Of a stretch of 64,000 bases of DNA, positions 1 through 62,548 are shown in pieces. Source of the stretch: a virus. Made by a program: the position numbers and the translations under genes. The notes below the pieces were generated by a model that worked only from the letters and a program-made list of their open reading frames with translations, searched no databases and was not told the DNA's origin. Positions within the stretch are counted from its first letter, which is position 1, and every line of letters starts with the position of its first letter. The stretch is taken from the UHGV virus genome UHGV-1440165, one strand, 5' to 3'.

Positions 1-1481
1 TCAACGATCTCATCAGCCTGTTTGCGCATGGCGTCCAGTTCAGCATCCAACACAGCAATGTCCGCAACCAGCTTGTCGTCCTGAGCCTTATGGTCATCAA
101 TCAGGGCAGTGACTTCGGCGGTGACTTTATCCAACTGGTTTAACTTCGATTGCAGTTCCTGGATCTGAGGATTGTACTCGCTCTCAATGCGCGCTTTGGT
201 ATCGTCGGACACCAGCTGGGTACACGTCGGGCAAGTCCCCATGTCGTGGAAGCGCTTGATGGCTGACTGATGGCCGTCCATTTCTGTTTGGAAACGGATG
301 CGGAAGTTCTCACCCTGTTGGCGGCGCTGGATAGCAGCGTTCAGGGCGTCCAGGTTTGTGTTGCGCTCGGTGAGCAGAGTGTTTTTGCTTTCGGCTACTG
401 TAAAGGCGCGGTCACGCAGGACCTGAAGATCATGCTCAGCAGCAGAAACCTCGATGCGTTCATAATCGTCGGCCTTTTCCTGGGCGACATCCTTCACCGC
501 CTGGATCTTGGCATCAAAGTCTTTCTTGACAGCCTCGATCTCCACCATGGATTCATCATGCAGGCGGCTTTCTACCGTCTTCATTTCCTGGGTGGCTTCA
601 AACTCAACCGCAGTGAGGCGGGTGCGCTCCTCATTCTGTGCGGCGATGTCAGCGTCCAAGGACTTCAGGGCTTCCTGTTGCTGTAAAAGGATATCAGCCG
701 ACTGCTGCTGGATCAGGGCGTTGGATTGCTCAATCTGCTGCAGCTGCGTTTTCTTGTTCGTGTGGTCAACAACCTTCAGGGCGCACTCATTGGCGATCGT
801 GTCCAGCTTTTCGTTCGCTTTCTTGATGGACGCCTTGACATCTTCATTCATCAGGCTGAAGAAGCCCAAGTCCCAGATAGTCTCCACCATGGCGCGGCGG
901 TCGGCGGTGTACATCTCGGTGAACGGAATGAACTTCTCTTTACCCAGCACCAGAGAGTTCTCAAACATCTTCTGGTCCACTCCGATGAGGTTCACGATGT
1001 ACTTGTTCATGTCGGCTTTGGCTGCTTCGTTATCGATCTGCATCCATTTGCCGTCCACCATCTGATGGACTTCAACAAAGTCAGGCTTGATGCCACGACG
1101 AACCTTCCATTCGCTGCCACGGCAGGCAAACTCCACCTCACCCACACATTCCTTGCGGCTCTGTGAGTTCACCAGGCCTGCCTTCTTCTCCTTCTTGCTG
1201 TACGTGTCGTTGTACAGTACGAAGAACAACAGCCATACCAGCATCGTGGATTTACCCGCGCCGTTATCGTCAGACGTGACGAGGGTGGCCGGGTTGCGCT
1301 GGTAATCGATCTCCATGAACTGATTGCCGATGGAGCGGAAGTTCTTGGCGCGGCCTTTGCGGAAGGTCAGTTTGTGCGTAATGTTGTCACACACTTCAAA
1401 TGGGACTTCGACCTCAACCGGAGTGTCGGCTACCTTCAAAAGATTGCCAAATTTGGCCAGGATATCTGTGCTCTGAGTCAT
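1..1481 (-). CDS. SbcC/Rad50-like recombination ATPase (T4 gp46-like), partial; C-terminus lies beyond the window
   Basis: Minus-strand translation from ATG at 1481 gives MTQSTDILAKFGNLL... with Walker A NGAGKST; the rest encodes a Q/L/E-rich coiled coil. Start sits 1 nt after the SbcD-like stop. Absent from ORF track because truncated at the window edge. Confidence 0.8.
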   Translation of the reverse strand, partial: MTQSTDILAKFGNLLKVADTPVEVEVPFEVCDNITHKLTFRKGRAKNFRSIGNQFMEIDYQRNPATLVTSDDNGAGKSTMLVWLLFFVLYNDTYSKKEKKAGLVNSQSRKECVGEVEFACRGSEWKVRRGIKPDFVEVHQMVDGKWMQIDNEAAKADMNKYIVNLIGVDQKMFENSLVLGKEKFIPFTEMYTADRRAMVETIWDLGFFSLMNEDVKASIKKANEKLDTIANECALKVVDHTNKKTQLQQIEQSNALIQQQSADILLQQQEALKSLDADIAAQNEERTRLTAVEFEATQEMKTVESRLHDESMVEIEAVKKDFDAKIQAVKDVAQEKADDYERIEVSAAEHDLQVLRDRAFTVAESKNTLLTERNTNLDALNAAIQRRQQGENFRIRFQTEMDGHQSAIKRFHDMGTCPTCTQLVSDDTKARIESEYNPQIQELQSKLNQLDKVTAEVTALIDDHKAQDDKLVADIAVLDAELDAMRKQADEIV

Positions 1482-2598: not shown

Positions 2599-3326
2599 TA
2601 TTCTGTTTCTCCTTCGTTTTCGTCCAGATCGAATTGGGTGTTGCCGAAGTCTTGATCTGAATTGTCTTCGGCCTGCGCTGTTACCGTATTCTTACCTTGT
2701 GACATGTATTGAAGTATGCCTTTCGCGATCTTTTTGTTCGATTCGGCGGCTCGGGCGTTCTCTACCTTCTCCCGCTCCTTCTGTCTTTGGGCATCCTTCT
2801 TGTTTTCGAAGTTTCCGATGCGCTCGCGGAAGTCCATGCCAATCCCAGTGGCATCAACAAAGATCTCTTGTTGGAAGTCAGGATCATCGGCCAGGCCTGC
2901 AAATCCACCTGCCTCTTCAAAGGAACGCAGCTTGATGTATGTGTGCTCTTCTTCTATGTTCAGCTTGCGGGCAAATGAGCGGTCAGCGCACATGGTCACC
3001 CAGGAGAAGAAGTTGATCTTGCCTTTGCGCCCGACGTGACCAACATCGAAGGTGTGGAGATAGCGAAGGATGTTGACTACAGCTTCAGACACCATGTCAT
3101 CGCGGTACGGATAATCGCGGTAATTGTAGCGGGTGCTCATCTTGCTGATGATGCGCTGGACCTGGACTGCAACGTAGTTGGGGATCTTGGGGAGCGGTGT
3201 GCCTTCAGTTAATGCCTTCTTGCGAGCGGGGATCCAATCACGAAGGATACTGATGACACGCTCGTTATCTTCGTCCGTAAAATATTTGACGACATTCTCG
3301 CCACGATCAACATAATTCATACCCAT
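2598..3326 (-). CDS. gp55-like late-transcription sigma factor (putative)
   Basis: 242 aa, ATG start; N-terminal half resembles T4 gp55 in pattern and sits next to the gp47/gp46-like genes as in T4; acidic C-terminal tail. Confidence 0.45.
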   Translation of the reverse strand: MGMNYVDRGENVVKYFTDEDNERVISILRDWIPARKKALTEGTPLPKIPNYVAVQVQRIISKMSTRYNYRDYPYRDDMVSEAVVNILRYLHTFDVGHVGRKGKINFFSWVTMCADRSFARKLNIEEEHTYIKLRSFEEAGGFAGLADDPDFQQEIFVDATGIGMDFRERIGNFENKKDAQRQKEREKVENARAAESNKKIAKGILQYMSQGKNTVTAQAEDNSDQDFGNTQFDLDENEGETE

Positions 3327-3337
3327 TGTGGGAACCC

Positions 3338-3865
3338 TCAGATACCGATAAATTCATCAAAAGATCCAACAACCTTCTTCACAGAGATCTTGTCGTTCTC
3401 AATCAGGAAGTTGCTGTCGTTCTTGGCTGCGGTAGCCCATGTGTCCGCGAGTTCATTGCCTTCAACACCCGCATGACCTTTGACCCATTTTAGTTCAACT
3501 TCACAAATTGAACTAACGAGATCATATATTCTGAACAGATCTTTTATGAGTTCAACATTCTTTTCCGGGAACCCCTGATACTCCCACTTGGCTCGCCATT
3601 CGGTGACGCTCTTGATGGTGTATTGACTGTCAGACCAAATTGTTGCCTTTGGTATCCTGCGCTCACCCTTTCCCGAGAATGCCCACAGTAGCTTCAATGC
3701 GTTGGTCACACCCAACAACTCGGCGATGTTGTTGGTGGACGGAGGAGGTAGGTGGCCGAAGAACACCTTCCATTGCATACCCGATATCGGCCTGATGGCA
3801 AAAGCCCACCCTGCAGCCTGATTTGTCCGAGGGTTAGAACCCCCGTCAGAAAAGATTTCAATCAT
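3338..3865 (-). CDS. Ribonuclease H (type 1)
   Basis: RNase H motifs IFSDGGS, TNNIAELLGVTNAL, DSQY, KGHAGVEGNELAD. ORF track extends to 3961 via a non-ATG start; first ATG is at 3865 (MIEIFSDGG...). Confidence 0.8.
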   Translation of the reverse strand: MIEIFSDGGSNPRTNQAAGWAFAIRPISGMQWKVFFGHLPPPSTNNIAELLGVTNALKLLWAFSGKGERRIPKATIWSDSQYTIKSVTEWRAKWEYQGFPEKNVELIKDLFRIYDLVSSICEVELKWVKGHAGVEGNELADTWATAAKNDSNFLIENDKISVKKVVGSFDEFIGI

Positions 3866-3867
3866 GA

Positions 3868-3875
3868 TATAAATA
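3868..3875 (+). promoter_or_regulatory. T4-type late promoter box TATAAATA (plus strand)
   Basis: Exact TATAAATA about 36 nt upstream of the ATG at 3911; RBS AGAGGAA lies between. Confidence 0.5.
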
Positions 3876-3910
3876 TCCCAAACTGGTTTTATAGAAAGAG
3901 GAATGAAACT

Positions 3911-4678
3911 ATGGCACCCCGCGCATATCGTTTCAGTCTCACCGCCCCGCAGATTGAGCAATTGCTCCTTTCTATCAATGATGCTATCAAGTCAGAAGAT
4001 ATCATCTATGATTATGCTACAGGTGGGACTGTTGGGCAAGTCGCAGCAGCGTCTGCCGTCAAGAACATGTGGCTCAAGCTCAATGAGATGGTGACAGGCC
4101 AAGGCCTCAAAGACGCCATCAACAGTGCTGGCGACAGCAACGTGTTCACCGACTATTATAAGTCTCTTCTGGATCGCGAAGGCTGGAAATTTATTGGCTC
4201 CCCAGCAGATATCCTGGCTCGAGACGATATCGACACCACGAACTTCACGGGCGGCGAAGTCATTCTACTTCAGAAGAACGCCTCAGGCAACCCTGAGTTC
4301 CAATACTGGAAGCGAACTCCCGTCGCGGGTGGTGACCCTACCTTCGCCTGGGCTTCGGTCTATGAAGGGAACTCCAACGACTCAACAATCGAAATCCCGG
4401 TGATCGGCACGAGCGTCCTCAAAGACATTCCCAAGGCTCTCTTCCATATGGTGGAGTTCCGAGTTCATGTCTATGACGAAACGCTGGGGCACTGGCAGGA
4501 TACAGACGGCAAGGTCGGTTATCGTGGTGAGGATCTGTTCTACAGCACGTACAATCATGTGCAGACCAAACCGCTCGCCACCATTGACTTCAGCCAAGAC
4601 ACAGACAGCATGAAGATCTCCGTGACTTCCCTGGAGCCGAATGTCAAATGCCATCTGTCGTTTATCGCTGGTTACTAA
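3911..4678 (+). CDS. Hypothetical late protein on plus strand
   Basis: ATG at 3911 with AGAGGAA RBS and upstream TATAAATA; 255 aa with protein-like composition. ORF track (3752..4678) begins at a non-ATG codon. Confidence 0.55.
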   Translation: MAPRAYRFSLTAPQIEQLLLSINDAIKSEDIIYDYATGGTVGQVAAASAVKNMWLKLNEMVTGQGLKDAINSAGDSNVFTDYYKSLLDREGWKFIGSPADILARDDIDTTNFTGGEVILLQKNASGNPEFQYWKRTPVAGGDPTFAWASVYEGNSNDSTIEIPVIGTSVLKDIPKALFHMVEFRVHVYDETLGHWQDTDGKVGYRGEDLFYSTYNHVQTKPLATIDFSQDTDSMKISVTSLEPNVKCHLSFIAGY

Positions 4679-15574: not shown

Positions 15575-17239
15575 TTAGATTTGTGAGGCCAGTTCTGCCA
15601 CCAGAGGAGCAGCACGAACACGCGCATCTTCCAGAGTCTGAGTGTTGAAGAACTTGCCATCACGGTACACCAGTTGGTGTTGGTTGTCGGCGTCTTGCAC
15701 CTGATCAAAGGTGATGCCGTCAACCAACACTAGTTTACCCTGAGAGTCTTTAATGACTTTAAGGAAACCACGCGCAGACTTTTTAGTCCCGCCTTTGTCG
15801 GTCTTCGGCTCTTTGAAGATCTCGCGGAATTCACCGTTCACCTTACCAGCCGTCGCTTTCACTGCCGTTCCAGTACTGTCACGGGTGTTCATCTGGTAGG
15901 TGTAGGAACCAATACCGAAGACCACGTTAATGGAAGCGAAGTTCCGGCCAGCCAGACGACCAAAGATCTGGTCTTCACGTGCCAATGTGATAGAGTCACC
16001 GTAGATCAGACCGATGTGATCGTCCAACAGGAAGTGGCCAGTCTCAGTTTGAGTACCGCCAAAGATCTCCCACAGGCGCTGAATAGAGCCGACTGCTTCA
16101 GAACGGCTGATGATATTACTGTCGTCTGCCATCAGAGAGTTGATCGTACCTTCGCCTGTGATCAGGTGATAGGTGTTCGTCTCTTCGATGTGGATGACTT
16201 CGGTGCTGCTGGACACGCCGCTGATGTTCAGCATAGCGCGGTCTTTGAACCCCTCGATGCGGTAGCCGCCGACGATGTGAACTGGGTCGCCAGAGTCAGG
16301 GCGGATCACGACTTTGCCGTTGCGTGCCATGATAATGTCTTTCAGGCGAGGGAGATAGTCGTCGATGACCTGCCAATAGTCCCACGCATCCGACACAATG
16401 CTGACGATGCCATCAGGATACACGTCCTGCACCAGGCGACGGAAGGTTTCGAATTCTCCATTCTTCGTACCCATGCACATCACGGCGTGTTCGGTGGCTG
16501 CAACGGAGCCAGCAACGACATAGTCTTCATCGATATCCGCGCCGTAATACTCTTCAACGAAGTCCAGGGCAGGGTTGGTGTCAGTGCCTTTGAAGAACAC
16601 CAGATGGCCAGAACCGGAAGACGCCGCGTCATGCCATCCGCTCATACCACGGAAGGAGAAGTCGTGGCCTTGGTAATCGATGAACCAATGGTCCGGTGAC
16701 ACGCCTGTGGCGATAGCGGCTTTCACCATCAGTGCCTTGTAATGCAGGGCGATGGTGGCGTTCGTCATGGGCTTCCAGATCTCAGAGCTGAACACAGTCT
16801 CCAGATAGTTGGTCAGCCAGTAGAACTCCGGCAAGGTGTTGAACATCACATACACCGGAACGCCATACGGGCACATGGTGCCTTCGGGTAGAGCACGGAC
16901 TTCGATAGGCAGATAACCGAGGTCATGCAGGGCTTCGATATGCTCTGTGCCAACACGACCTGGACCCAGTACTTTGTTCATGCGACGGGCATACTTCTTC
17001 AACACCTTGGCCTTCGGGCGCTGGAAGAACGCTTCGTCAAACAGTTCGTGGAACCAGGTCATGAAACCCTGGATGCCCCAGACCACCACGCCGTTCTTCG
17101 GCAGGTGAGAGTTGAATAATTTGTTGGAACGCGGAGTCCCGTTGGAGAACACCAGCTCACTACCTTCAGGGAACTGATAGATGTGCCCTGATTTGTAGAA
17201 GTCGATTGCATGAATTGGGTCTAAGTGGCGCATGCTCAT
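15575..17239 (-). CDS. nadV: Nicotinamide phosphoribosyltransferase-family protein (NadV/NAMPT-like)
   Basis: 554 aa; NAMPT-type N-terminus with the DFYKSGH motif; ATG start overlaps the stop of the upstream Prs-like gene by 4 nt. Confidence 0.8.
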   Translation of the reverse strand: MSMRHLDPIHAIDFYKSGHIYQFPEGSELVFSNGTPRSNKLFNSHLPKNGVVVWGIQGFMTWFHELFDEAFFQRPKAKVLKKYARRMNKVLGPGRVGTEHIEALHDLGYLPIEVRALPEGTMCPYGVPVYVMFNTLPEFYWLTNYLETVFSSEIWKPMTNATIALHYKALMVKAAIATGVSPDHWFIDYQGHDFSFRGMSGWHDAASSGSGHLVFFKGTDTNPALDFVEEYYGADIDEDYVVAGSVAATEHAVMCMGTKNGEFETFRRLVQDVYPDGIVSIVSDAWDYWQVIDDYLPRLKDIIMARNGKVVIRPDSGDPVHIVGGYRIEGFKDRAMLNISGVSSSTEVIHIEETNTYHLITGEGTINSLMADDSNIISRSEAVGSIQRLWEIFGGTQTETGHFLLDDHIGLIYGDSITLAREDQIFGRLAGRNFASINVVFGIGSYTYQMNTRDSTGTAVKATAGKVNGEFREIFKEPKTDKGGTKKSARGFLKVIKDSQGKLVLVDGITFDQVQDADNQHQLVYRDGKFFNTQTLEDARVRAAPLVAELASQI

Positions 17240-21611: not shown

Positions 21612-22865
21612 TTATTCAGGTTTCTTCAAACGATCAAGGAGATTGACAGAGCTGCGACCGAGCACAACTTCATCACAGCGCTTCTTGTAAGCACCACTTC
21701 CGTCATAACCGACCTTACCCCGAGGCTTATCTCCCCGTTGAACGGCTTCTACGCAGCGGGTGTACTTGCTCAGTTCACAGAACATGTTCTCCAGCTGCAT
21801 GACGTTCATACACTGATCTTCCGGGGCTTCAGCCGACCAGAACTGCTCCCGGACATAACCATAGTCCCCGTAAATCGAATCCTGGTGGTCACGCAGCCAG
21901 AAGATACATTCTTCATGCGTCATGCCGTCCTTGTTCAGGAACAACAGGTCGATCCCAGCGCGGCAACCCGGTCCAGCGATAGTGAAATGGTTCTCACTGA
22001 ACGGATACTCAGGAATGTACGTGAAGTCCACCCAGATCTGATAGGCCAGGAATGGACCCAAGCCTTCGATTTCGTCGTACATGGCCTGGTAGACTTCATC
22101 CGGAGATTCGCATTCCAGCAGCCGCTCGAAGTAATCAGGGTGCTTGTTGACGAATGCCCTCAGAGAACGGATGACGCGCATCGGCATGTACGGTTCCCAA
22201 CCCTCAATGGTGTAGAAGTCCGGCTCTGCTTCAGCAATTGCCTTCGCTTCTTTATAATCCATATTCTGGGTTGAACCGTCTTTGCAGATCAGATTCACCA
22301 TCATCCCACCGAAGCGCTGCTCCTTGTGGTTGACAACCAGCTCAGGGAAAGCCAGGCATTGCTTCAGGCCGCCCGTGTTGAAAGCATTGGTGAAGACTTT
22401 GCCGCCGTTGGCCTCGAACTTCTGTAAACGTTCGCGGGTCGCGTCAAGGTTGATCTTGGCGAAGTCGGAGATCGTCATCGCGCCGCCGATAGCCTGGATC
22501 GGATCCCAGAGGTTAAACATGCGGAACAACACGCAGTTGAACATCTTATCCGGCATAGACAGCGCATCGTTGTTAACGATGTTGTTGATTAGGTTGAGAG
22601 ACTGCCTGTCGTGCTCTCTCCGGACGTTGCAGAACTTGACCTGCCGTAGTATGGCATTATCCGTCCAAGGAGCAGGAAGACGCTGGACGTCCTTCTTAAC
22701 GTGGATCTTGTATCGCTCGCTCATCCATTCGTAAGAAAGACGACGATGAAACGGACTGAGCACGGGCTTGGCGGACTTGATTTTATCTTCGCGGACACCA
22801 CAATAAGGGATGTCACGGGCTTTATCTTTCATGGTATCCTCACAGAATACGAAAACAGAGGCCAT
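21612..22865 (-). CDS. Hypothetical protein (417 aa)
   Basis: ATG at 22865 (alternative ATG at 22832 with GAGGA RBS); no recognisable motif. Confidence 0.5.
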   Translation of the reverse strand: MASVFVFCEDTMKDKARDIPYCGVREDKIKSAKPVLSPFHRRLSYEWMSERYKIHVKKDVQRLPAPWTDNAILRQVKFCNVRREHDRQSLNLINNIVNNDALSMPDKMFNCVLFRMFNLWDPIQAIGGAMTISDFAKINLDATRERLQKFEANGGKVFTNAFNTGGLKQCLAFPELVVNHKEQRFGGMMVNLICKDGSTQNMDYKEAKAIAEAEPDFYTIEGWEPYMPMRVIRSLRAFVNKHPDYFERLLECESPDEVYQAMYDEIEGLGPFLAYQIWVDFTYIPEYPFSENHFTIAGPGCRAGIDLLFLNKDGMTHEECIFWLRDHQDSIYGDYGYVREQFWSAEAPEDQCMNVMQLENMFCELSKYTRCVEAVQRGDKPRGKVGYDGSGAYKKRCDEVVLGRSSVNLLDRLKKPE

Positions 22866-23790: not shown

Positions 23791-24255
23791 TTATTCGCTT
23801 TTGGCCTTCGTAGGCCGGATGATGTATTTTGGAACCAGCTTCCATTCAGGAACCTGATCATGTTTGACCACTTTGATGCGAGACATATCGGCGGCCTCAG
23901 TGATCTGCTCAGGGTTCAGAACCTTCAACATGTTCCACTGCTCCAGCAGCTTGATGATGCGGTTCATTCGCAGGATGTCCTCACGGTTGAAGCCGTTGTA
24001 GTGGCCATCCAGCATGAACAGATGCTTGAAGTGAACGATATAATACTTGCCATACTTATGAAGAATATGACAAGTCTGGTACAGAGTATTCGGCTCTTGG
24101 CGCGTGTTTACCCCAATTCGGCTCAGTGTTTCCTTGATCCCCAGGAAGATCCCTGGCCGATCTTGGTTCAATTGAACTTCAACCATACAATCAACGATGC
24201 TGGCCTCATCGTTGACGGCTGAAATGTTCAATATGTCTAGCGTATTGCGCGCCAT
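23791..24255 (-). CDS. regA: RegA-like translational repressor
   Basis: 154 aa; KETLSRIGV...LYQTCHILHKYGKYYIVHFK and EWKLVPKY match T4 RegA; sits next to the clamp-loader genes as in T4. Confidence 0.7.
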   Translation of the reverse strand: MARNTLDILNISAVNDEASIVDCMVEVQLNQDRPGIFLGIKETLSRIGVNTRQEPNTLYQTCHILHKYGKYYIVHFKHLFMLDGHYNGFNREDILRMNRIIKLLEQWNMLKVLNPEQITEAADMSRIKVVKHDQVPEWKLVPKYIIRPTKAKSE

Positions 24256-24711: not shown

Positions 24712-25701
24712 TCACTTCCACTTGATGTTGAGCATGATGTTGGTCAGGAAGTACACGGCATGCAGCCATACGTCCCCAACCTGACGGTGCTCAATTTGAG
24801 ACTGACCGCAGACACAGACAAGGTCAGGGATAGACTCAGTCTGTACAGACATCGGCTTCTCTTTGTCCTGTGGTACACAGAACTGGAAGAAGCGGGAATA
24901 GAAGTCTTCGGTGATGTAGTTCTGATTGTCAGTCACCCACTGCTTCATGCCAGCCCAGTCATTGGCTTTCAGCATGCCGACCAGAGTGCCGAGGTCAGCC
25001 GCTTTCAACACAGCCAGGGCGCGTTCGTCAATCTTACCGAACGTGGTGACGTTGTCCTGCAGCGTACCCATGATGCGGCGGTTGTCGGGGAAATGGCGCT
25101 TAACGATAGCAGCCAGAACCTGTGGAACGAATTCAACGTTTTCGGCTCTGAGGATTTCAACGCAGCGCAGACAGAATTTACCCTGAACTTCCAGCGCTTC
25201 CTGCTCGTTCCAGATGAAGTCGATCTCACGGCAACGCGAGCGCAGAGGTTCGTTGACACGCTGCTTGGCGTTCGTGGTCAGGATAAAGGAGCAGTTCTTT
25301 GAGACCTTCTCTACGATACCCTTCAGGGATTCCTGCGCCGACATAGACAGGCGCTCAACTTCGTCGAGGATAACGACTTTGCGGCCGCCGAAGACGCTCA
25401 CGCCCGTAGAATACTGAATGACGCGATCACGGATAACATCGATGCTGTTGTCCAGGGATGCGTTGATAAACAGAGGTTGCTTACAACCGATCTCATTACA
25501 CACGGCCAGAGCAGTAGTGGTCTTGCCCGTACCCGGCTGAGGGGAGTAGAACAGCATGGACGGGATGTTGCCGCTGCCGCTGGTAATGTACCCATGGATT
25601 TTAGCGCGGACGTCCTGAGGGATGATGATCTCATCGAGGTTGTCAGGTCTGTACTTGTTCTCCCACGCATATTGGTCGGACACGATAGTGATATTGGACA
25701 T
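24712..25701 (-). CDS. Clamp loader large subunit (gp44-like, RFC-type AAA+ ATPase)
   Basis: Walker A PQPGTGKTT, Walker B VVILDEVE, SRC motif (RSRC); ATG overlaps the upstream stop (TAATG). Confidence 0.85.
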   Translation of the reverse strand: MSNITIVSDQYAWENKYRPDNLDEIIIPQDVRAKIHGYITSGSGNIPSMLFYSPQPGTGKTTTALAVCNEIGCKQPLFINASLDNSIDVIRDRVIQYSTGVSVFGGRKVVILDEVERLSMSAQESLKGIVEKVSKNCSFILTTNAKQRVNEPLRSRCREIDFIWNEQEALEVQGKFCLRCVEILRAENVEFVPQVLAAIVKRHFPDNRRIMGTLQDNVTTFGKIDERALAVLKAADLGTLVGMLKANDWAGMKQWVTDNQNYITEDFYSRFFQFCVPQDKEKPMSVQTESIPDLVCVCGQSQIEHRQVGDVWLHAVYFLTNIMLNIKWK

Positions 25702-26357
25702 TATGAATTCCCATGATATAGTTTACAGAATAGAACCCAAGCACTGTCATTATATGGGTTCCAACCTTCTTTGAATTTGTTTATCATACTCATTGCAGTG
25801 TTCTCTTTTATTGAGAACAAACGAGCAATTTTACGACAACCATCTCCGGTTTTCAACCAATGTAAGTAAACATCGCCCGATTTCAACCACATTGGTCTAG
25901 TGTTATGCAACAACGCAGCCCCTGTGTCCCAAGGGTTTATACCGAACACCGGATGAGAAGAACCTTTCCTACCGTTCATCGGATGTTCTTTCCCTTTCTT
26001 TCCTTTTAGCCAACCAGGCTTTCCCCTTCTGTGATGGTTTGGTCCTGCTGCTCTTCCGTTAGCCACAGAACACCCTTCCGGTTGAAACATCAAGTTTAAA
26101 CAGAGAGGATTTTGTGAATGTTCTGAAATGAGTTTCTGTTCTTTCCAATATGCATCTTCTGGAGAGTCGAACAATTCTACAAATATCACATCAAAGAAAT
26201 CAGAACCTTTCTTAGATATGATTTCCTTGACCGTTTGTGAAGAAGTGAAATACGAAGTGAACAATTGTAAAGGATGCGCACCCAATTTCGTTCTAGAACC
26301 AAAATAGAAAGAACCATCCTTTCCTAACAAATGATATACAAACGGTTGGTTCCTCAT
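25701..26357 (-). CDS. Putative GIY-YIG-type homing endonuclease (freestanding)
   Basis: VYHLLGKDGSFYFGS (GIY...YIG-like), downstream conserved E and N, basic C-terminal region; ATG at 26357 with AGAGG RBS; inserted between gp45 and gp44. Confidence 0.45.
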   Translation of the reverse strand: MRNQPFVYHLLGKDGSFYFGSRTKLGAHPLQLFTSYFTSSQTVKEIISKKGSDFFDVIFVELFDSPEDAYWKEQKLISEHSQNPLCLNLMFQPEGCSVANGRAAGPNHHRRGKPGWLKGKKGKEHPMNGRKGSSHPVFGINPWDTGAALLHNTRPMWLKSGDVYLHWLKTGDGCRKIARLFSIKENTAMSMINKFKEGWNPYNDSAWVLFCKLYHGNS

Positions 26358-26388
26358 TTCAGCCTCTTGTAGAAGAATCATTTCAAAT

Positions 26389-26407
26389 GGGCGGGAAAGC
26401 CCCGCCC
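26389..26407 (-). other. GC-rich hairpin (GGGCGGG-AAAG-CCCGCCC) of the recurring element
   Basis: Perfect 7-bp stem followed on the minus strand by ATTTGAAATG; a TATAAT hexamer lies just upstream. Confidence 0.45.
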
Positions 26408-26436
26408 ACACATTATAGCATCAGGCTGGAGATTGA

Positions 26437-27105
26437 TTACTCAATCTGCGCGCCGACGAAGTAATTGATCGTCGCGTCGGAGGACTGGAAGTTAACCATC
26501 TGCAGTTCAGCACAGGCACGGAGCGTGTAGTTGCCTTCGATCATCTTCAGGTTGGCAACGTCCAGAGGCATAACAAAGTCGCTCATGGCGGTTTCGCCCA
26601 GCTCTACGGTGTAGTTGTTGGAGTTGTCCAGGCCAGTAGTAGTCGCCACCATGCGGGTTTTGCCACCCTGAGCAACCAGGCGAACTGTTTTGTGGCCGAG
26701 GGTAGAACACGCACGAGTCAGTTCTTTCATCTTCTCTGGAGTGATGATCGCTTCAAAGTCGACGGAAGGCAGTTCGATGGTGTCAGCCGGGACCACAGTC
26801 AGTTCTTTGGCGGAACGCCAGAACTGCAGTTGAGAGCTTTCGCCTTTCAGCAGGATGTAGTCCTGATGGAATTCGGCTTTCGCGCCTTTAAAGGAAGGCA
26901 GACGCTGAATGGCCAGCAGCTTGGTCAGGTCCAGAATAGGGAATTCAAACGGGAAGTCTTCTTCGATCTGCGCAACGGCGATCACAGTAGAAGAATCGTT
27001 GATGCTGCGCAGCATTTTACCCGGTGTCAGAACGATAGAAGGGTTGATGGTCTCAAAGTTGGCCAGCAACTGAAGTGTACGTTCGGAGAGAGTGATCTCT
27101 TGCAT
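26437..27105 (-). CDS. Sliding clamp (gp45-like)
   Basis: 222 aa; N-terminus LQLLANFETINPSIVL resembles T4 gp45 ALLKNFATINSGIML; position upstream of clamp loader. Confidence 0.7.
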   Translation of the reverse strand: MQEITLSERTLQLLANFETINPSIVLTPGKMLRSINDSSTVIAVAQIEEDFPFEFPILDLTKLLAIQRLPSFKGAKAEFHQDYILLKGESSQLQFWRSAKELTVVPADTIELPSVDFEAIITPEKMKELTRACSTLGHKTVRLVAQGGKTRMVATTTGLDNSNNYTVELGETAMSDFVMPLDVANLKMIEGNYTLRACAELQMVNFQSSDATINYFVGAQIE

Positions 27106-27447
27106 TTATGTATCCTCAAAATATAGTGGGGGTTCAAGTCATGTTCGACGCAATCTAGTATCGCTGTGTTGTGCTTATAGAACAAGTGGCAAATTGCGCT
27201 ACGCGTTATAATAAATGCCTTCGGCATTTATGGACTTTATTAAAGATAATAACCTTTATTATTCCTATTCGCTTCGCTCATAAAACAAATACTCGTTGCT
27301 CGTTAACACTCACAACTCGTATAATACCACGCCAGATGTTCAACAAGAAAGCAGTTTTTATTCAACAGCAAAATTAATTTAATTTGGTCTAAACATGTAC
27401 GCGAAATAATATGTATGTCAGGTTAACCCAACACACGAGAGTAATAT
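27106..27447. promoter_or_regulatory. AT-rich divergent regulatory region with sigma70-like promoter elements and a stem-loop
   Basis: 342 nt without convincing ORF; plus-strand TTGCTC-N18-TATAAT near 27296..27325; second TATAAT near 27207; AAATGCC-TTC-GGCATTT hairpin near 27213..27229. Confidence 0.45.
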
Positions 27448-27825
27448 ATGAAACAGTTCGTAGGATTGTACGCAGTGGGATGCAGCAAGCCAGATGCTAT
27501 CCTCACCGCAGGGGAATTTGTTACAGGAACACCAGTGTATCTGTCACAGCTGGCGTCTGATAAGAACTTACCATCGGAACCGCGCTTTGTGCCACTTGGC
27601 CTGATGACAGGCATGAAAGTTGGCTTGTACATTGGTGTCGTTACCTTCAACGATGGTATCGAAGCGAAGGTGCTGCCATTCCAACTCAACAGTGAGCAAA
27701 CACTGAAAGAAACGATTGCTGAGCATCTGAATCCTCAGTGCCTGGCTTCCCTCGATAAATTGTTCGGCGCGGCGGGAGATGAAGGCGAGGCCACCCCCGC
27801 CTATGTGAATCAAGATCAATCGTGA
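27448..27825 (+). CDS. Hypothetical protein on plus strand
   Basis: 125 aa, ATG start, protein-like composition; the overlapping minus-strand ORF 27423..27689 looks non-coding. Confidence 0.45.
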   Translation: MKQFVGLYAVGCSKPDAILTAGEFVTGTPVYLSQLASDKNLPSEPRFVPLGLMTGMKVGLYIGVVTFNDGIEAKVLPFQLNSEQTLKETIAEHLNPQCLASLDKLFGAAGDEGEATPAYVNQDQS

Positions 27826-29324
27826 TTCCCGAGCGCCACCTTCATGAATTCCACGGGGTGACGCTCTGTTAGATAGAATTTGTATCGCTCTTGAGAATGC
27901 CTCACAGCGTGGTTCTGGGATCCTTTGTACGATGCATTGTCGACTAAGTCCCAGATCCATGCAACATCCTTAGAGGAGTGCTGGCGCATCAGACGGCCTA
28001 ATGTCTGTATGACACGGATGTATGACTTGCTCGGGTGAGCCAGTACCAGGTGATGTAGCTTTTTGATAGACACGCCCTGCTGCATTGTGCCATACGATGC
28101 CAACAGCGTGATATCCTCGCCATCTTCCATCGCTTTCTGAATACGCCGACGATCCTCGATCTTCACTTCACCGTTGATGACGAACACGTTGGGTTTCACC
28201 GCGCTCAACATCTCGTACACCACCATCATGTGGGCATCAATACGCTCAAACATGACAGCCACGTTCCCATTGAGGTTCAGTGCCATCTTCGCAATCACTT
28301 CGTTTCGTGACTGATGGGTGATGAGGTATTCAATTTCCTTGCTGTATTCCCCGTCCAGTGTCATTGCGTCGGCGATGGTATGCCTCAGCTCAATCATCTT
28401 GACTTTGATGTCAGTGGCGTAGCCCAGATTAATGAGGTCGCGAGCCGTGATGATCTTGTGATAGGTGCCGAAGTGAGCGACAACCTGCAGCCCAGCAACC
28501 TTCGTGTTCGCAAGCGTACCTGTCACGCCCAGACGCTGGTCGGCATAGATGCAGTTGTTGAGGATGTAGGACAGCTTCTCCGACTTGGAGGTGTGAACTT
28601 CGTCCACCACGATATCACCGAACTGATGGAACCATTCCTTCGGCTGATCTTGTATGCCCTGCCAGGTGCTGATTACAATCGGCTTGGTGATGTTTTTAGT
28701 CGCGCCCTCAAAGATCAGCTGAGTGTTGACAACAGGCTTCCAATCAGTCCCGTGGGAGTATTCTTCGAAGTTGTCATACAGCTGCGTAACCAGGTGGATT
28801 GACGGCACCACGATAAGCGTCCTCAGATTGCTTTCCAGAGCTTCTCTGCGTTGCCTGTAGTACCGCGCCATGACATACAGAACAAAGGACTTCCCGGCAC
28901 TCGTAGCCAGCTCACAGACGCATCTGGTCTGACGCATCGCCTTGGCTATCGTGTCAAACTGGTAATCACGGGTGATCGCATCGATGTACTCATGATTCTC
29001 TGTCCGGACTTTGGCATGCAGGCTGTTGATGAATTCGTGTATCTCTTCATCAGGAATGTTCTGAACGTATTTCAGCGCCGGGTCCAGCTCAATAGTGTAG
29101 CCGTTCTGTTTGCAGAACTTGAACACCTCGAACAACAGGCCGATGTCGATAAGGCCGGAAGATTTGGTGAACAGACGGACAATCCCATCCCATTTAGAGA
29201 ACGGGTTCGGAGTGTAGTTTGGGTCTTCGAATTTGAAGTAATCGTTCAGCTCTTCCCTGATAGAAAGATCTGCGATGCATCGCATGCGGACTTCGTTAAC
29301 CTTAACAATCTGAACGTCTGCCAT
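27816..29324 (-). CDS. uvsW: UvsW-like SF2 DNA helicase
   Basis: N-terminus FKFEDPNYTPNPFSKWDGIVRLF resembles T4 UvsW; Walker A TSAGKS, DEVH box. ATG at 29324 (MADVQ...); track start 29417 is an extension. Confidence 0.8.
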   Translation of the reverse strand: MADVQIVKVNEVRMRCIADLSIREELNDYFKFEDPNYTPNPFSKWDGIVRLFTKSSGLIDIGLLFEVFKFCKQNGYTIELDPALKYVQNIPDEEIHEFINSLHAKVRTENHEYIDAITRDYQFDTIAKAMRQTRCVCELATSAGKSFVLYVMARYYRQRREALESNLRTLIVVPSIHLVTQLYDNFEEYSHGTDWKPVVNTQLIFEGATKNITKPIVISTWQGIQDQPKEWFHQFGDIVVDEVHTSKSEKLSYILNNCIYADQRLGVTGTLANTKVAGLQVVAHFGTYHKIITARDLINLGYATDIKVKMIELRHTIADAMTLDGEYSKEIEYLITHQSRNEVIAKMALNLNGNVAVMFERIDAHMMVVYEMLSAVKPNVFVINGEVKIEDRRRIQKAMEDGEDITLLASYGTMQQGVSIKKLHHLVLAHPSKSYIRVIQTLGRLMRQHSSKDVAWIWDLVDNASYKGSQNHAVRHSQERYKFYLTERHPVEFMKVALGNHD

Positions 29325-29349
29325 ACAAAATCTCCCAAGATATATGGGA

Positions 29350-29356
29350 TATTTAG
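29350..29356 (-). promoter_or_regulatory. Late-promoter-like motif (minus strand CTAAATAT)
   Basis: CACTAAATATCCC about 26 nt upstream of the UvsW ATG. Confidence 0.4.
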
Positions 29357-30099
29357 TGGTTCGGCCATACTCCGTTCTGTTCTTTGTCCATACGATGGTA
29401 CAGGCGGACACGCTCAAACATCTTGCTCAGGATGTCATCACGGTGGAACTCGATGATGGTTGGGTTCAAAGAGGATTCGTTGGCGATGACGTTTATCAAC
29501 CGGGTGATCTTTACGCCAAACATCTGCTGGAACATGACCGAGTACAGGCAAAGCTGAATGCTGTAGTCCTCGATCATTCCGCGAGTCTTGATGGTATTGG
29601 AAGTCTTGAAGTCAATGATGGCTGGTTTACCCTCATACACCCCGATGAGGTCTACGCGCCCAGCGAGGCCAAGGACTTCGCTATATAATGGGATCTCCTG
29701 AGCATAGATCTTGCTCATCTTGTTCAGGTAAGGGAAGAGTTGCTTGAACATGAACATGTATTCGCCAGCCGCCTCAAGCACTTCTTTCATCGGGCGATTC
29801 TTCAAATACAGTTCACAGGCGAGGTGCAACTTCTCACCACGGTCGGCACACCGCATGGTCTCTAAATCGGCGGCCTCGTGTCCTAGCTTGTCCCTCCAGG
29901 CTTCTAGCCATTCATGGTCCCCAGTACGCCCAAGCATCGTCGTGACCGAAGTCAGTTTGACGCCAGTTGGTGAGACGTAGTGGCGACCATTCTCCGTCGT
30001 GACACATTCCAGTTCTTTGTATGGGAGTTCATACTGCTGGAATGTGTGGTGACGATTTTCGAAGTCGTTCAGCTTACGAAGAGCCTGGAGGGATGCCAT
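29353..30099 (-). CDS. PD-(D/E)XK family nuclease (RecB/Cas4-like fold)
   Basis: 248 aa; motif RVDLIGVYEGKPAIIDFKTS fits D...(D/E)xK nuclease core. Confidence 0.55.
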   Translation of the reverse strand: MASLQALRKLNDFENRHHTFQQYELPYKELECVTTENGRHYVSPTGVKLTSVTTMLGRTGDHEWLEAWRDKLGHEAADLETMRCADRGEKLHLACELYLKNRPMKEVLEAAGEYMFMFKQLFPYLNKMSKIYAQEIPLYSEVLGLAGRVDLIGVYEGKPAIIDFKTSNTIKTRGMIEDYSIQLCLYSVMFQQMFGVKITRLINVIANESSLNPTIIEFHRDDILSKMFERVRLYHRMDKEQNGVWPNH

Positions 30100-32547: not shown

Positions 32548-32554
32548 TATTTAG
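32548..32554 (-). promoter_or_regulatory. Late-promoter-like motif (CCCTAAATACCCCC)
   Basis: About 29 nt upstream of the 32519 start; embedded in a CCCCCA...TGGGGG inverted repeat. Confidence 0.45.
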
Positions 32555-33905: not shown

Positions 33906-33954
33906 GGTGTAGTTCCTTCATTTCAGAGTCAGTGTTGTGCTGCTTATGGAATGA

Positions 33955-33986
33955 AGTATACGGGGTTTATTGAAGAAGTAAACCCC
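33955..33986 (-). promoter_or_regulatory. Early promoter (GTTTAC-N17-TATACT) overlapping a terminator-type hairpin
   Basis: Hairpin GGGGTTTA-loop-TAAACCCC (about 33962..33986); the -35 GTTTAC is part of the stem; -10 TATACT at about 33955..33960 on the minus strand. Confidence 0.5.
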
Positions 33987-34007
33987 GTTTATTGAATTAT
34001 TTTAAGA

Positions 34008-38312: not shown

Positions 38313-38394
38313 TCCTTACATTGATATTCAGTTAAGTTGAAATTACTTAGTAGTTCAAAATCAAGCCCCCTTTCGAGGGCTGTGGCTGCTAAAA

Positions 38395-39300: not shown

Positions 39301-39307
39301 TATTTAG
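39301..39307 (-). promoter_or_regulatory. Late-promoter-like motif (CACTAAATACTG)
   Basis: About 28 nt upstream of the scaffold gene start. Confidence 0.45.
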
Positions 39308-39318
39308 TGAGGCTGAAT

Positions 39319-39987
39319 TCAGCCCAGATGTTTCAATGCGATATCAAGGCGGCGCAGGAAGTCGTCTTCGAATTGAATATTGGTTTTCACCAATGAATCG
39401 ACCACCTGCCCCTTAATGTCTTTAGGAACCCAAATTCCTGAAGATTCATCAAGCTGCCATTCCACAGATTCGCTCACAGCCTTTACATAACAAACTTGTC
39501 CAGAAGGACGGTCGACTGCATCAACAGCAGTGAGCATGAAGCCAGGTTGAACGTCATCATAACCATTCACTGACTTGGTCTCACCAAGGCCACGTGTAGA
39601 CACGGCCAGGTTGAAGTCTGCTTCAGCCAGAGCACGAATGATCTGACCTTTCGGTGTATTTAGGATCCGCGCTCGACCGATAGCGTTGGTGCCTTCCCAG
39701 CGCATGGATTCGGTTTTGAGCGCAGCGTGTTCGATATCGGGGAAAGGATAATCCGGATGCTTGAGTTCACCGATTGCGCGACGATCCTGGATATACTCTT
39801 TGTCGTATGCTTCGACAGCAGGGATACCCACTTTCTGGAGATCGTAGTTGCGGCCATTACGGTTCACCTGGTTACACATCACGAATGGACCTTCGATGTA
39901 CATGGCTTTGCCGCCAGTAGCCGTGGCCGCTTCACCAATCTGAAGGTCTTTCCCTATCGCAGTGATCTCACGCAACAGTTTCATCAT
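39319..39987 (-). CDS. Prohead core protein/protease (gp21-like)
   Basis: 222 aa; position upstream of scaffold and capsid as in T4. Confidence 0.6.
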   Translation of the reverse strand: MMKLLREITAIGKDLQIGEAATATGGKAMYIEGPFVMCNQVNRNGRNYDLQKVGIPAVEAYDKEYIQDRRAIGELKHPDYPFPDIEHAALKTESMRWEGTNAIGRARILNTPKGQIIRALAEADFNLAVSTRGLGETKSVNGYDDVQPGFMLTAVDAVDRPSGQVCYVKAVSESVEWQLDESSGIWVPKDIKGQVVDSLVKTNIQFEDDFLRRLDIALKHLG

Positions 39988-42840: not shown

Positions 42841-43554
42841 TTACACAATTCTATTTAGCTGCCAACCAGTCGTATTCAAACGTTCAATGGTCGCAGTTTT
42901 CCTATGATACACAGACGGCGGTGGAACTGGAATACCCTTGTCGATATAGTCATACAATGCTGAATATTTAAGCCCGAGTGTTTCTACATACTCGCGGCAA
43001 TTGCCATGGATGAAGTATTCTTCACCTGATGGAGAAATCAACTTGAACTTCTTGGCGTGTCCGTTGTTTTTGCCCTTCCGAATGCCAGTCTCCACACAAG
43101 TTTTACTGAATAAAGATTTGTCTTCATCTGACCATACTATGCCTGTACGGCAACTAACAATCTCGCCAGTCTTCCAACGCGGGTCATCACAACTGACAAG
43201 ACCCAAACTTTTCCCGGTGATGGGGTCTTTAGCTCCATGTTTCCCTATGAAAGCGGCTCCGTCTCCGCCTGTGGTCTTGTTGTACCCTTTCTGTAGTGAC
43301 ATATGGGTGCCATGTTGCTCGATTAGGATGATTTCTAAATCTTTGAGGTCTTCGGGGGTTTTGGTCTGGGCTATGACCTGGAATGAGAAAGACTCTTCAC
43401 CATATTTGCGTATAGCCTGATGAATGAAGAAATCAGAACCATTCTTGGCACTGTTACAGTGCTCCCACCAGCGATGGTTTGGGTCTCTGGCTGTTATCCC
43501 GATGTACGCTTTCTGATTTACGAGATTCGTGATTTTGTATACGCTTCCGATCAT
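42841..43554 (-). CDS. GIY-YIG homing endonuclease (freestanding)
   Basis: N-terminus VYKITNLVNQKAYIGIT...R...WEH with downstream conserved E/N is a classic GIY-YIG signature; inserted between sheath and tube genes. Confidence 0.7.
   Translation of the reverse strand: MIGSVYKITNLVNQKAYIGITARDPNHRWWEHCNSAKNGSDFFIHQAIRKYGEESFSFQVIAQTKTPEDLKDLEIILIEQHGTHMSLQKGYNKTTGGDGAAFIGKHGAKDPITGKSLGLVSCDDPRWKTGEIVSCRTGIVWSDEDKSLFSKTCVETGIRKGKNNGHAKKFKLISPSGEEYFIHGNCREYVETLGLKYSALYDYIDKGIPVPPPSVYHRKTATIERLNTTGWQLNRIV
42852..42858 (-). promoter_or_regulatory. Late-promoter-like motif (GCTAAATAGAA)
   Basis: About 32 nt upstream of the tail tube ATG, inside the 3-prime end of the GIY-YIG gene. Confidence 0.4.
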
Positions 43555-45572: not shown

Positions 45573-45579
45573 TATTTAG
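45573..45579 (-). promoter_or_regulatory. Late-promoter-like motif (CACTAAATATCTT)
   Basis: Between the terminase stop and the sheath gene, about 43 nt upstream of the sheath ATG. Confidence 0.45.
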
Positions 45580-49832: not shown

Positions 49833-49856
49833 ATCAATACCCTCAATTTTGAAGGT

Positions 49857-49863
49857 ATTTAGT
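49857..49863 (-). promoter_or_regulatory. Late-promoter-like motif (GACTAAATACCTT)
   Basis: About 25 nt upstream of the 49832 start. Confidence 0.45.
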
Positions 49864-56353: not shown

Positions 56354-56360
56354 ATATTTA
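56354..56360 (-). promoter_or_regulatory. Late-promoter-like motif (TACTAAATATCTC)
   Basis: About 34 nt upstream of the giant ORF start. Confidence 0.45.
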
Positions 56361-56416
56361 GTATACAGCCAACCGAGGAATAGAAAGAAATAAGCCCTCC
56401 GAAGAGGGCTTAGTTT

Positions 56417-59518: not shown

Positions 59519-59525
59519 TATTTAG
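59519..59525 (-). promoter_or_regulatory. Late-promoter-like motif (GACTAAATACCCC)
   Basis: About 22 nt upstream of the 59497 start. Confidence 0.45.
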
Positions 59526-62541: not shown

Positions 62542-62548
62542 TATTTAG
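62542..62548 (-). promoter_or_regulatory. Late-promoter-like motif (AACTAAATACCCC)
   Basis: About 38 nt upstream of the 62504 start; overlaps an ACCCCTA...TAGGGGT inverted repeat. Confidence 0.45.

Follow-up and report, generated by a model that had tools for sequence, protein, structure and literature searches.

Results

Layout of the locus

We analyzed the non-coding gap between the sliding clamp gene (gp45) and a plus-strand open reading frame (ORF) of 125 amino acids (aa), named ORF125, in the virus genome UHGV-1440165. The window, i.e. the whole stretch of DNA that was analyzed, comprises 64,000 nucleotides (nt). By sequence comparison with phage records it belongs to an Agtrevirus-like (ViI-like) phage of the Ackermannviridae and not to T4. 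Over 26437-29417 the top match was Yersinia phage CAU_YEP3 with 96.5% identity, followed by Salmonella Agtrevirus-like phages and then by Shigella phage Ag3, Dickeya Limestonevirus phages and others at 86-87%. The order gp62, gp44, gp45, gap, plus-strand ORF, uvsW, exonuclease, uvsY is common to all relatives, and the same synteny is retained in seven divergent metagenomic lineages. Almost every gene of the 64 kb lies on the minus strand, ORF125 being among the few exceptions. The locus contains the following features:

26437-27105, minus strand: sliding clamp gene, gp45-like, 222 aa (phrog_223, E 1e-64; Pfam gp45-slide_C); called sliding clamp in all relatives
27106-27447: non-coding gap of 342 nt between the clamp gene and ORF125
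27106-27165, minus strand: block A1, clamp mRNA leader, with Shine-Dalgarno sequence GAGGA (27117-27113) and the late-promoter-like motif ACTAGATT (27159-27152)
27185-27157, minus strand: predicted promoter P45, TTGTTC (27185-27180), 17 nt, GATACT (27162-27157), with the box TTCTATAA (27182-27175)
27211-27231, both strands: hairpin of 9 base pairs (bp), ATAAATGCC-TTC-GGCATTTAT, arms 27211-27219 and 27223-27231, between P45 and P1
27235-27262: AT-rich variable spacer with the 19-nt direct repeat CTTTATTAAAGATAATAAC in 1.5 copies
27263-27326, plus strand: block B with the motifs TCGCTTCGCTC and CTCGTTGCTCG and the predicted promoter P1, TTGCTC (27296-27301), 18 nt, TATAAT (27320-27325)
27338-27395, plus strand: block C, AT-rich, 58 nt, downstream of P1 and containing the -35 of P2
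27384-27412, plus strand: P2, predicted proximal promoter of ORF125, TTGGTC (27384-27389), 17 nt, TAATAT (27407-27412)
27436-27413, minus strand: minus-strand-specific, terminator-like hairpin, then AUAUUAUUUC
27448-27825, plus strand: ORF125, 125 aa (phrog_4255)
27816-29324, minus strand: uvsW helicase gene (Pfam UvsW_N, ResIII, DEAD, Helicase_C), start as in the 1509-nt coding sequence of the relatives

An initial annotation had described the gap as AT-rich and as the longest non-coding stretch of the window, and both descriptions hold. The 342 nt are the largest interval between called genes, and the most AT-rich 200- and 300-nt stretch of the window lies here (31-34% GC compared with about 50%). 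The overlap of the plus-strand ORF with the 3' end of uvsW was read correctly as well: the two genes are convergent and share 10 nt (27816-27825). For uvsW we used the annotated start of the relatives; the mechanical ORF reaches 29417. ORF125 is, as assumed in the initial annotation, a real conserved gene, which matches phrog_4255 over its full length (E 1e-46), was found in 272 phage records and is restricted to Ackermannviridae.

Conservation of the gap

The four-fold degenerate sites of the adjacent clamp gene served as a near-neutral yardstick. Alignments were built from 26 isolates and then from 12 deep lineages, and hexamers and spacings were checked by script over up to 17 lineages. Matches to the whole gap were found in 273 phage records, with identities of 95-99% in Aglimvirinae, about 80% in Kuttervirus and about 73% in Taipeivirus, and gap blocks are recognisable in at least 12 lineages. 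Compared with the Aglimvirinae phages Ag3, LIMEstone1 and YX22, the whole gap is 95-96% identical while the four-fold sites of gp45 reach 63-65%. Therefore, the gap evolves far slower than neutral sites. In the comparison with Kuttervirus and Taipeivirus the four-fold sites of gp45 drop to 48-54%, whereas identity amounts to 86-89% for block A1, 100% for block A2, 80-81% for block B and 81-86% for block C. For the Miltonvirus phage Kevin, block C is 79% identical compared with 54% at the four-fold sites and 68% at codon positions 1 and 2 of gp45. In these alignments a segment of about 130 nt is constrained more strongly than the clamp protein itself.

A generic promoter scan of the gap returned 2 promoter-like sites with 1.8 expected. 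Since a plain consensus scan is at chance level, hexamers alone prove nothing, and the excess over chance lies in the conservation and not in single hexamers. Other short upstream gaps of the window, e.g. 33906-34007 and 38313-38394, are highly conserved as well. Thus, conserved control regions are the norm in Ackermannviridae, and the present gap is the longest of them. We also considered a general repeated promoter consensus for blocks A-C and rejected it, as each motif has just one copy in the window, and likewise in 145 kb of Vi01 and 50 kb of KN2-1. Pentamers of the type AyTCr with a periodicity of 22-24 nt, which had been seen by eye, were dropped since they are broken by Miltonvirus insertions and unsupported by the repeat search. 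A by-eye check of the gap for sites of the host factors DnaA, IHF, CRP and LexA gave no convincing match.

Predicted promoters on both strands

In P45, P1 and P2 the -35 and -10 hexamers are 16-18 nt apart and the -10 has A at position 2 and T at position 6. For P45, which faces the clamp gene, the -35 is invariant and the spacer is exactly 17 nt long in 15 of 17 lineages with differing spacer sequence, while the -10 drifts within (G/C/T)A..(A)T. P45, like P2, thus shows a phylogenetic footprint, in which hexamers and spacer length are kept and the spacer sequence drifts. The Miltonvirus group has a near-perfect TTGTCA-16-TATAAT on the clamp side instead. Besides, P45 is one of five minus-strand copies (3896, 18183, 21591, 27182 and 34985) of the composite TTC(A/T)ATAA-N11-14-(T/G)A(T/C)(A/T)NT, which has no copy on the plus strand and 0.03 expected; the five copies lie before DNA-metabolism genes. 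A promoter type TTTACTTCTTCAATAA...TATAAT, close to the box class of P45, was listed as early promoter for Ag3 (PMC3121705, supplement). The -10 of P45 is overlapped by the late-like motif of the clamp gene, which reads ACTAGATT here, ACTAATTT in Kuttervirus and ACTAAATT in Taipeivirus, with 1-2 mismatches to CTAAATA.

The arrangement at P45 resembles the middle promoters of T4, as a conserved box TTC(A/T)ATAA stands 11-13 nt upstream of a TAnnnT-like -10 and recurs ahead of DNA-metabolism genes including the clamp gene. In T4 the MotA box has the consensus (a/t)(a/t)TGCTT(t/c)A and lies about 12 nt upstream of the -10, e.g. before gene 45. The box TTC(A/T)ATAA differs from this consensus; moreover, MotA is mentioned neither in the Ag3 nor in the LIMEstone1 paper, and AsiA is not mentioned in the Ag3 paper. 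The box may also be a mere spacer of a sigma-70 promoter with the -35 TTnTTC.

On the plus strand, the core bases of block B are invariant across 12 lineages. The spacing of P1 is 16-18 nt in all lineages except the Miltonvirus group, and the P1 spacer CTCACAACTCG and about 30 nt upstream (TCGCTTCGCTCG ... AATACTCGTTGCTCG) are conserved base by base. In 23 of 26 sequences a generic sigma-70 scan picked up P1 at one and the same position of the alignment; in Kuttervirus and Taipeivirus it also found P2. The hexamers of P2 with a spacing of 17-18 nt are present in all lineages examined, most of the spacer sequence being variable; the Miltonvirus group has the diverged hexamers TAGCTC and TACCTT, and the lineages L046 and L047 were read by eye from the alignment. 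From P2 the leader to ORF125 is about 29 nt long and includes a GAGAG ribosome-binding site. Block C is 79-86% identical across genera, shows no codon periodicity and, with about 20-25% GC, is among the lowest-GC 40-60 nt stretches of the window.

The Salmonella phage Se-H (Kuttervirus) combines a clamp gene and a left gap half of the Kuttervirus type with a P1 -10, leader and ORF125 of the Aglimvirinae type. It is 80-90% identical to 27305-27825 of the window compared with 48-63% for other Kuttervirus, and its recombination joint falls within the invariant P1 spacer. This mosaic structure indicates that leader and ORF125 transfer between subfamilies as one cassette.

Hairpins and spacer

The hairpin between P45 and P1 has an energy of -9.9 kcal/mol on the plus strand (z -2.5) and -8.8 kcal/mol on the minus strand. 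It is retained in 8 of 12 lineages with differing loops (TTCG, TGAC, TAAC) and, in one double change, G-C in place of A-U, and 78% of the cells are paired compared with 32-47% when the partner is slid. A terminator scan picked up the stretch 27211-27231 on the plus strand. However, no more than 3 of its pairs are G-C, the U-rich tails are interrupted, and two genera lack it. As the energy is modest and the U-tracts are interrupted, a role as terminator or insulator is plausible but not proven. The conserved, covarying stem is probably no promoter element but a putative bidirectional terminator or insulator.

The adjacent spacer (27235-27262) varies between genera and is 97-99% identical within Aglimvirinae. 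YX22 and the aligned sequence L014 carry one additional tandem copy of the AT-rich 19-nt unit CTTTATTAAAGATAATAA(C/T), so the repeat copy number is variable in the gap centre. The hairpin at 27413-27436 reaches -12.3 kcal/mol on the minus strand (z -3.2) compared with -3.4 kcal/mol on the plus strand; on inspection of the alignment, it is confined to Aglimvirinae.

The initial annotation had proposed divergent promoters on the basis of two TATAAT hexamers, a TTGCTC element and a hairpin with a 7-bp stem. Both hexamers were located (27207-27212 and 27320-27325), and TTGCTC lies at 27296-27301, with 18 nt between it and the second TATAAT. As a promoter element the hexamer at 27320 is conserved, whereas the one at 27207 is not conserved in other genera and has no comparative support as part of a promoter. 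The stem AAATGCC/GGCATTT exists but extends to 9 bp (27211-27231). Two elements had been missed, the clamp-side TTGTTC-17-GATACT (27185-27157, minus strand) and the plus-strand P2 (27384-27412). Promoter-like elements with conserved hexamers and 16-18 nt spacing thus occur on both strands in 12-17 lineages, while the assignment of the elements was corrected. With this correction the reading as a divergent control region is partly supported and broadly right.

Late-type motif and uvsW

The heptamer CTAAATA has 10 copies in the window, all on the minus strand, with 3.1 expected (29350-29356, 32548-32554, 39301-39307, 39657-39663, 42852-42858, 45573-45579, 49856-49862, 56355-56361, 59519-59525 and 62542-62548). 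It often reads aCTAAATAcc and mostly lies immediately upstream of structural genes. The T4 late consensus TATAAATA was discarded, as its single site in 64 kb is at chance level. T4 late-promoter rules do not fit, and judged by its distribution CTAAATA is a recurrent late-type motif in this Ackermannviridae phage. The promoter annotations of Ag3 (PMC3121705) and LIMEstone1 were based on searches with the T4 consensus. One exact copy belongs to uvsW:

29350-29356, minus strand: late-type promoter motif of uvsW, CTAAATA, about 25 nt upstream of the start codon, conserved in Ag3, Vi01 and KN2-1

This suggests that uvsW is expressed late, as is UvsW of T4. No plus-strand terminator was predicted between the ORF125 stop and 29333; therefore, transcripts from P1 and P2 would read antisense through uvsW. 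The uvsW transcripts, in turn, would traverse ORF125 antisense and then meet the minus-strand hairpins. A small palindrome, TCCCAAGATATATGGGA, at 29333-29349 between the late-type motif and the start codon of uvsW was scored as terminator-like in either orientation; plus-strand transcripts from P1 and P2 would meet it as their first stop signal.

The ORF125 protein

Among 1.8 billion representative proteins, 16 clusters matched ORF125 with E up to 1e-10, all of 114-168 aa. The protein is 33-40% identical between genera, and the DNA is about 80% identical in the Aglimvirinae comparison. The family shares (K)Q(F/L)VGLYAVG at the N-terminus (diverged in the Miltonvirus homologue), GLYxGxV, and (S/T)(L/I/M)(D/G)x(L/I)FG followed by an acidic linker. 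Its C-terminus carries the near-invariant peptide (T/S)PxYV(N/D)QD, EATPAYVNQDQS in the window; all other proteins of the window, and those of the sampled sequence of Vi01 and KN2-1, lack this peptide. AlphaFold2 predicts a small alpha/beta domain with a disordered tail (predicted local distance difference test, pLDDT, 80; predicted template modelling score, pTM, 0.70). No Pfam, NCBIfam, PADLOC or PDB sequence match was obtained, and a Foldseek search of the model against PDB gave nothing with E < 0.5.

Residues 100-107 of ORF125, ASLDKLFG, are a close variant of (S/G)LDFLF(G/D). In T4, gp45-binding peptides are the C-terminus of gp43, EKASLDFLFG, and a ligase loop, EPEGLDFLFD (PMC6212786). 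ASLDKLFG is identical to the gp43 tail ASLDFLFG in 7 of 8 residues, the homologue P0021 has an exact SLDFLFG, and the gene adjoins the clamp gene. At its end the Vi01 polymerase has NLLSMMGKKG, in which NLLSMMG follows a similar h-x-x-h-h-G pattern. In contrast to the T4 peptides, the ORF125 motif is not in a free tail or loop; it ends 18 residues before the C-terminus in a confidently predicted helix (92-106; block pLDDT 90 and 76) within the folded domain, and the disordered tail carries a different conserved peptide. Furthermore, the relationship between the Ackermannviridae clamp and T4 gp45 is no more than distant (Pfam E 7e-4). Clamp binding of ORF125 via ASLDKLFG is thus a lead and not a finding, and we consider it rather doubtful.

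Some records label ORF125 as the clamp loader subunit gp62. This label is unsupported: ORF125 has no Pfam match and did not align by BLASTP with the gp62 of the window, and Phage_clamp_A matches the true gp62 upstream in relatives and not ORF125. The CAU_YEP3 record likely contains annotation errors here: ORF125 (2653-2889) is called from an internal start with 78 aa and named 'clamp loader subunit', and uvsW (2880-4388) is labelled 'Cas3 helicase'.

Further genes around the locus

Dickeya Limestonevirus phages have an HNH endonuclease gene (I-LimI) that interrupts uvsW with about 1.1 kb extra (LIMEstone1 1609-2140), and SW16-7 has an additional 573-nt ORF in the interval between uvsW and the exonuclease gene. 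In the metagenomic lineage L046 the gap is 557 nt long and an extra called ORF of 72 aa (1035-1253, minus strand) separates the clamp gene from the conserved blocks. Elsewhere in the window, 21612-22865 (minus strand) encodes a 5-hydroxymethyldeoxyuridine (5-hmdU) DNA kinase (Pfam HMUDK_hel, E 1e-82) and 15575-17239 (minus strand) a member of the nicotinamide/nicotinate phosphoribosyltransferase family. Both are consistent with the thymidine hypermodification and nicotinamide adenine dinucleotide (NAD) salvage modules known in ViI-like phages.

Discussion

Taken together, the gap is probably a compact divergent transcription-control region common to the Ackermannviridae. To the left, P45, a member of the phage box class TTC(A/T)ATAA that is overlapped by the late-like ACTA(A/G)ATT, would drive the clamp gene and the downstream clamp-loader genes. 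The clamp leader with its ribosome-binding site is a plausible target of the translational repressor RegA, which is encoded about 3 kb downstream:

23791-24255: RegA gene

To the right, the tandem host-type promoters P1 and P2 would drive ORF125, probably early in infection. In the centre, the hairpin and the AT-rich spacer may block read-through from outside, particularly of late transcripts that initiate on the minus strand at the late promoter of uvsW and run antisense through ORF125.

This arrangement is similar to divergent bacterial and phage promoter regions with a terminator. Hexamer pairs are found on both strands with 16-18 nt spacing in AT-rich sequence, each side has its own leader and ribosome-binding site, and a hairpin lies in the shared upstream space. 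In contrast to such regions, the hexamers of the gap are weak, P1 and its surroundings are conserved base by base well beyond the hexamers, and two tandem promoters precede one accessory gene of 125 aa. The gap is a known kind of control region in a known phage family that had been annotated only in part before.

Several observations speak against a simple pair of divergent promoters. The sigma-70 matches are weak (P45 and P2 7/12 by manual count, P1 9/12), and the literature searched holds no mapped transcription start for any Ackermannviridae phage. In the papers on LIMEstone1 and Ag3 (PMC3121705) the promoters are in-silico only, and none is given for orf165 or orf166 of Ag3. The base-by-base conservation of the P1 spacer, of about 30 nt upstream and of the 58-nt block C exceeds the needs of a simple promoter, and block C is better conserved than the ORF125 protein it would serve. 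In the Miltonvirus group 3-nt insertions on either side of a P1 hexamer lengthen the spacing, and the hairpin is absent in Taipeivirus and Miltonvirus. Two readings fit the over-conserved core, a promoter regulated by a DNA-binding factor and a T4-like origin composed of a promoter and an unwinding element.

The second of these two would mean that blocks B and C are, or overlap, an origin of the T4 oriF/oriG type, in which the P1 transcript hybridised in block C primes the leading strand and the late UvsW from next door later removes the R-loops. Such an origin would be compatible with promoters that also serve gene expression. The T4 origins oriF and oriG pair a middle promoter with an unwinding element, and their R-loops are unwound by UvsW. 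The gap resembles oriF(uvsY) and oriG(34) in the succession of promoter and AT-rich segment and in its position among recombination genes near uvsW and uvsY. The -10 of P1 ends at 27325 and block C starts at 27338, i.e. an AT-rich element lies within about 50 bp of the promoter, and this 58-nt segment is the best-conserved part of the gap at deep divergence. Moreover, the block B/P1 element has just one copy both in the window and in 145 kb of Vi01, and it lies inside a replication and recombination gene cluster with synteny conserved in all lineages. The leader RNA is unusually unstructured, 27333-27450 being less structured than all 200 shuffles (z +2.3), and the late-type promoter on uvsW is conserved.

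However, T4 unwinding elements require AT-richness and no fixed sequence, so that the base-by-base conservation of the gap is not predicted by an origin, and equally AT-rich stretches occur elsewhere in the window. Iterons, i.e. at least three direct repeats of a 12-22 bp unit, are absent from the gap, in which the repeat search gave only scattered two-copy families of 9-14 nt without significance, and the GC skew has no informative change. The literature searched contains no mapped Ackermannviridae origin, and regulated promoters account for every feature as well. We therefore regard an origin at blocks B and C as unlikely. Similarly improbable is the wider scheme in which blocks B-C (27263-27395) are the primary R-loop origin, fired by P1 as an early promoter, with ORF125, part of that cassette, as replisome adaptor and a switch timed by UvsW. 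If it were true, ORF125 would dock on the clamp or another conserved partner via the SLDxLFG helix and the TPxYV(N/D)QD tail, and early antisense transcription across uvsW followed by late UvsW would time the switch from origin-dependent replication.

It is very unlikely that the conservation of the gap is due to an encoded non-coding RNA or short leader peptide, for example to a short minus-strand transcript that ends at the hairpin at 27211-27231. With its U-rich tails on both strands this hairpin could terminate a short transcript; Kuttervirus has a minus-strand TTGTGA-17-TATTAT about 60 nt upstream of it, and an ATG at 27336 starts a frame of 13 codons in the window. However, the Kuttervirus -10 is not retained in Aglimvirinae or Taipeivirus, and the segment between candidate promoter and hairpin is the least conserved between genera. 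RNAalifold found no conserved fold in 26 sequences beyond the hairpin (-3.3 kcal/mol for the plus strand; 0 kcal/mol and 0 pairs for the minus strand), and Rfam at a permissive threshold gave no significant match (best Gut-1, 19.9 bits compared with a gathering score of 50, E 0.49). In the aligned sequences L032 and L033 the short frame has no start codon, its length differs from genus to genus, and the blocks show no 3-nt periodicity, the variable sites falling 15/15/14 by phase.

That the high identity within Aglimvirinae reflects recent recombination or gene conversion by a homing endonuclease instead of selection is hardly credible: a free-standing GIY-YIG-like homing endonuclease gene (phrog_314; 25701-26411, minus strand) does lie between gp44 and gp45 in the window, and Se-H has a real recombination joint inside the gap, yet conversion would also homogenise the flanks, which stand at 63-65% (clamp four-fold sites) and about 80% (ORF125 DNA), and conservation of the blocks extends across genera and to seven metagenomic lineages whose flanks are very different. 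The phrog_314 gene is present at the clamp locus of CAU_YEP3, SW16-7 and YX22 and absent from Ag3, Vi01 and KN2-1.

ViI-like phages (Kuttervirus, Agtrevirus, Limestonevirus and Taipeivirus) are widely used in biocontrol and therapy. In the literature searched there are no experimental maps of their transcription programme or origins, and promoter annotations are pattern searches that largely use T4 and E. coli consensus sequences. The reading of the gap as a divergent control region supplies three predicted promoters and a candidate terminator ahead of the clamp operon. With its clamp-binding-like motif and its invariant peptide at the C-terminus, the small conserved protein ORF125 would be a good target for interaction studies, and so would the over-conserved core of the gap for the mapping of start sites and origins. 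Even if it comprised only ordinary promoters, the region would be useful as an annotation reference for the Ackermannviridae.

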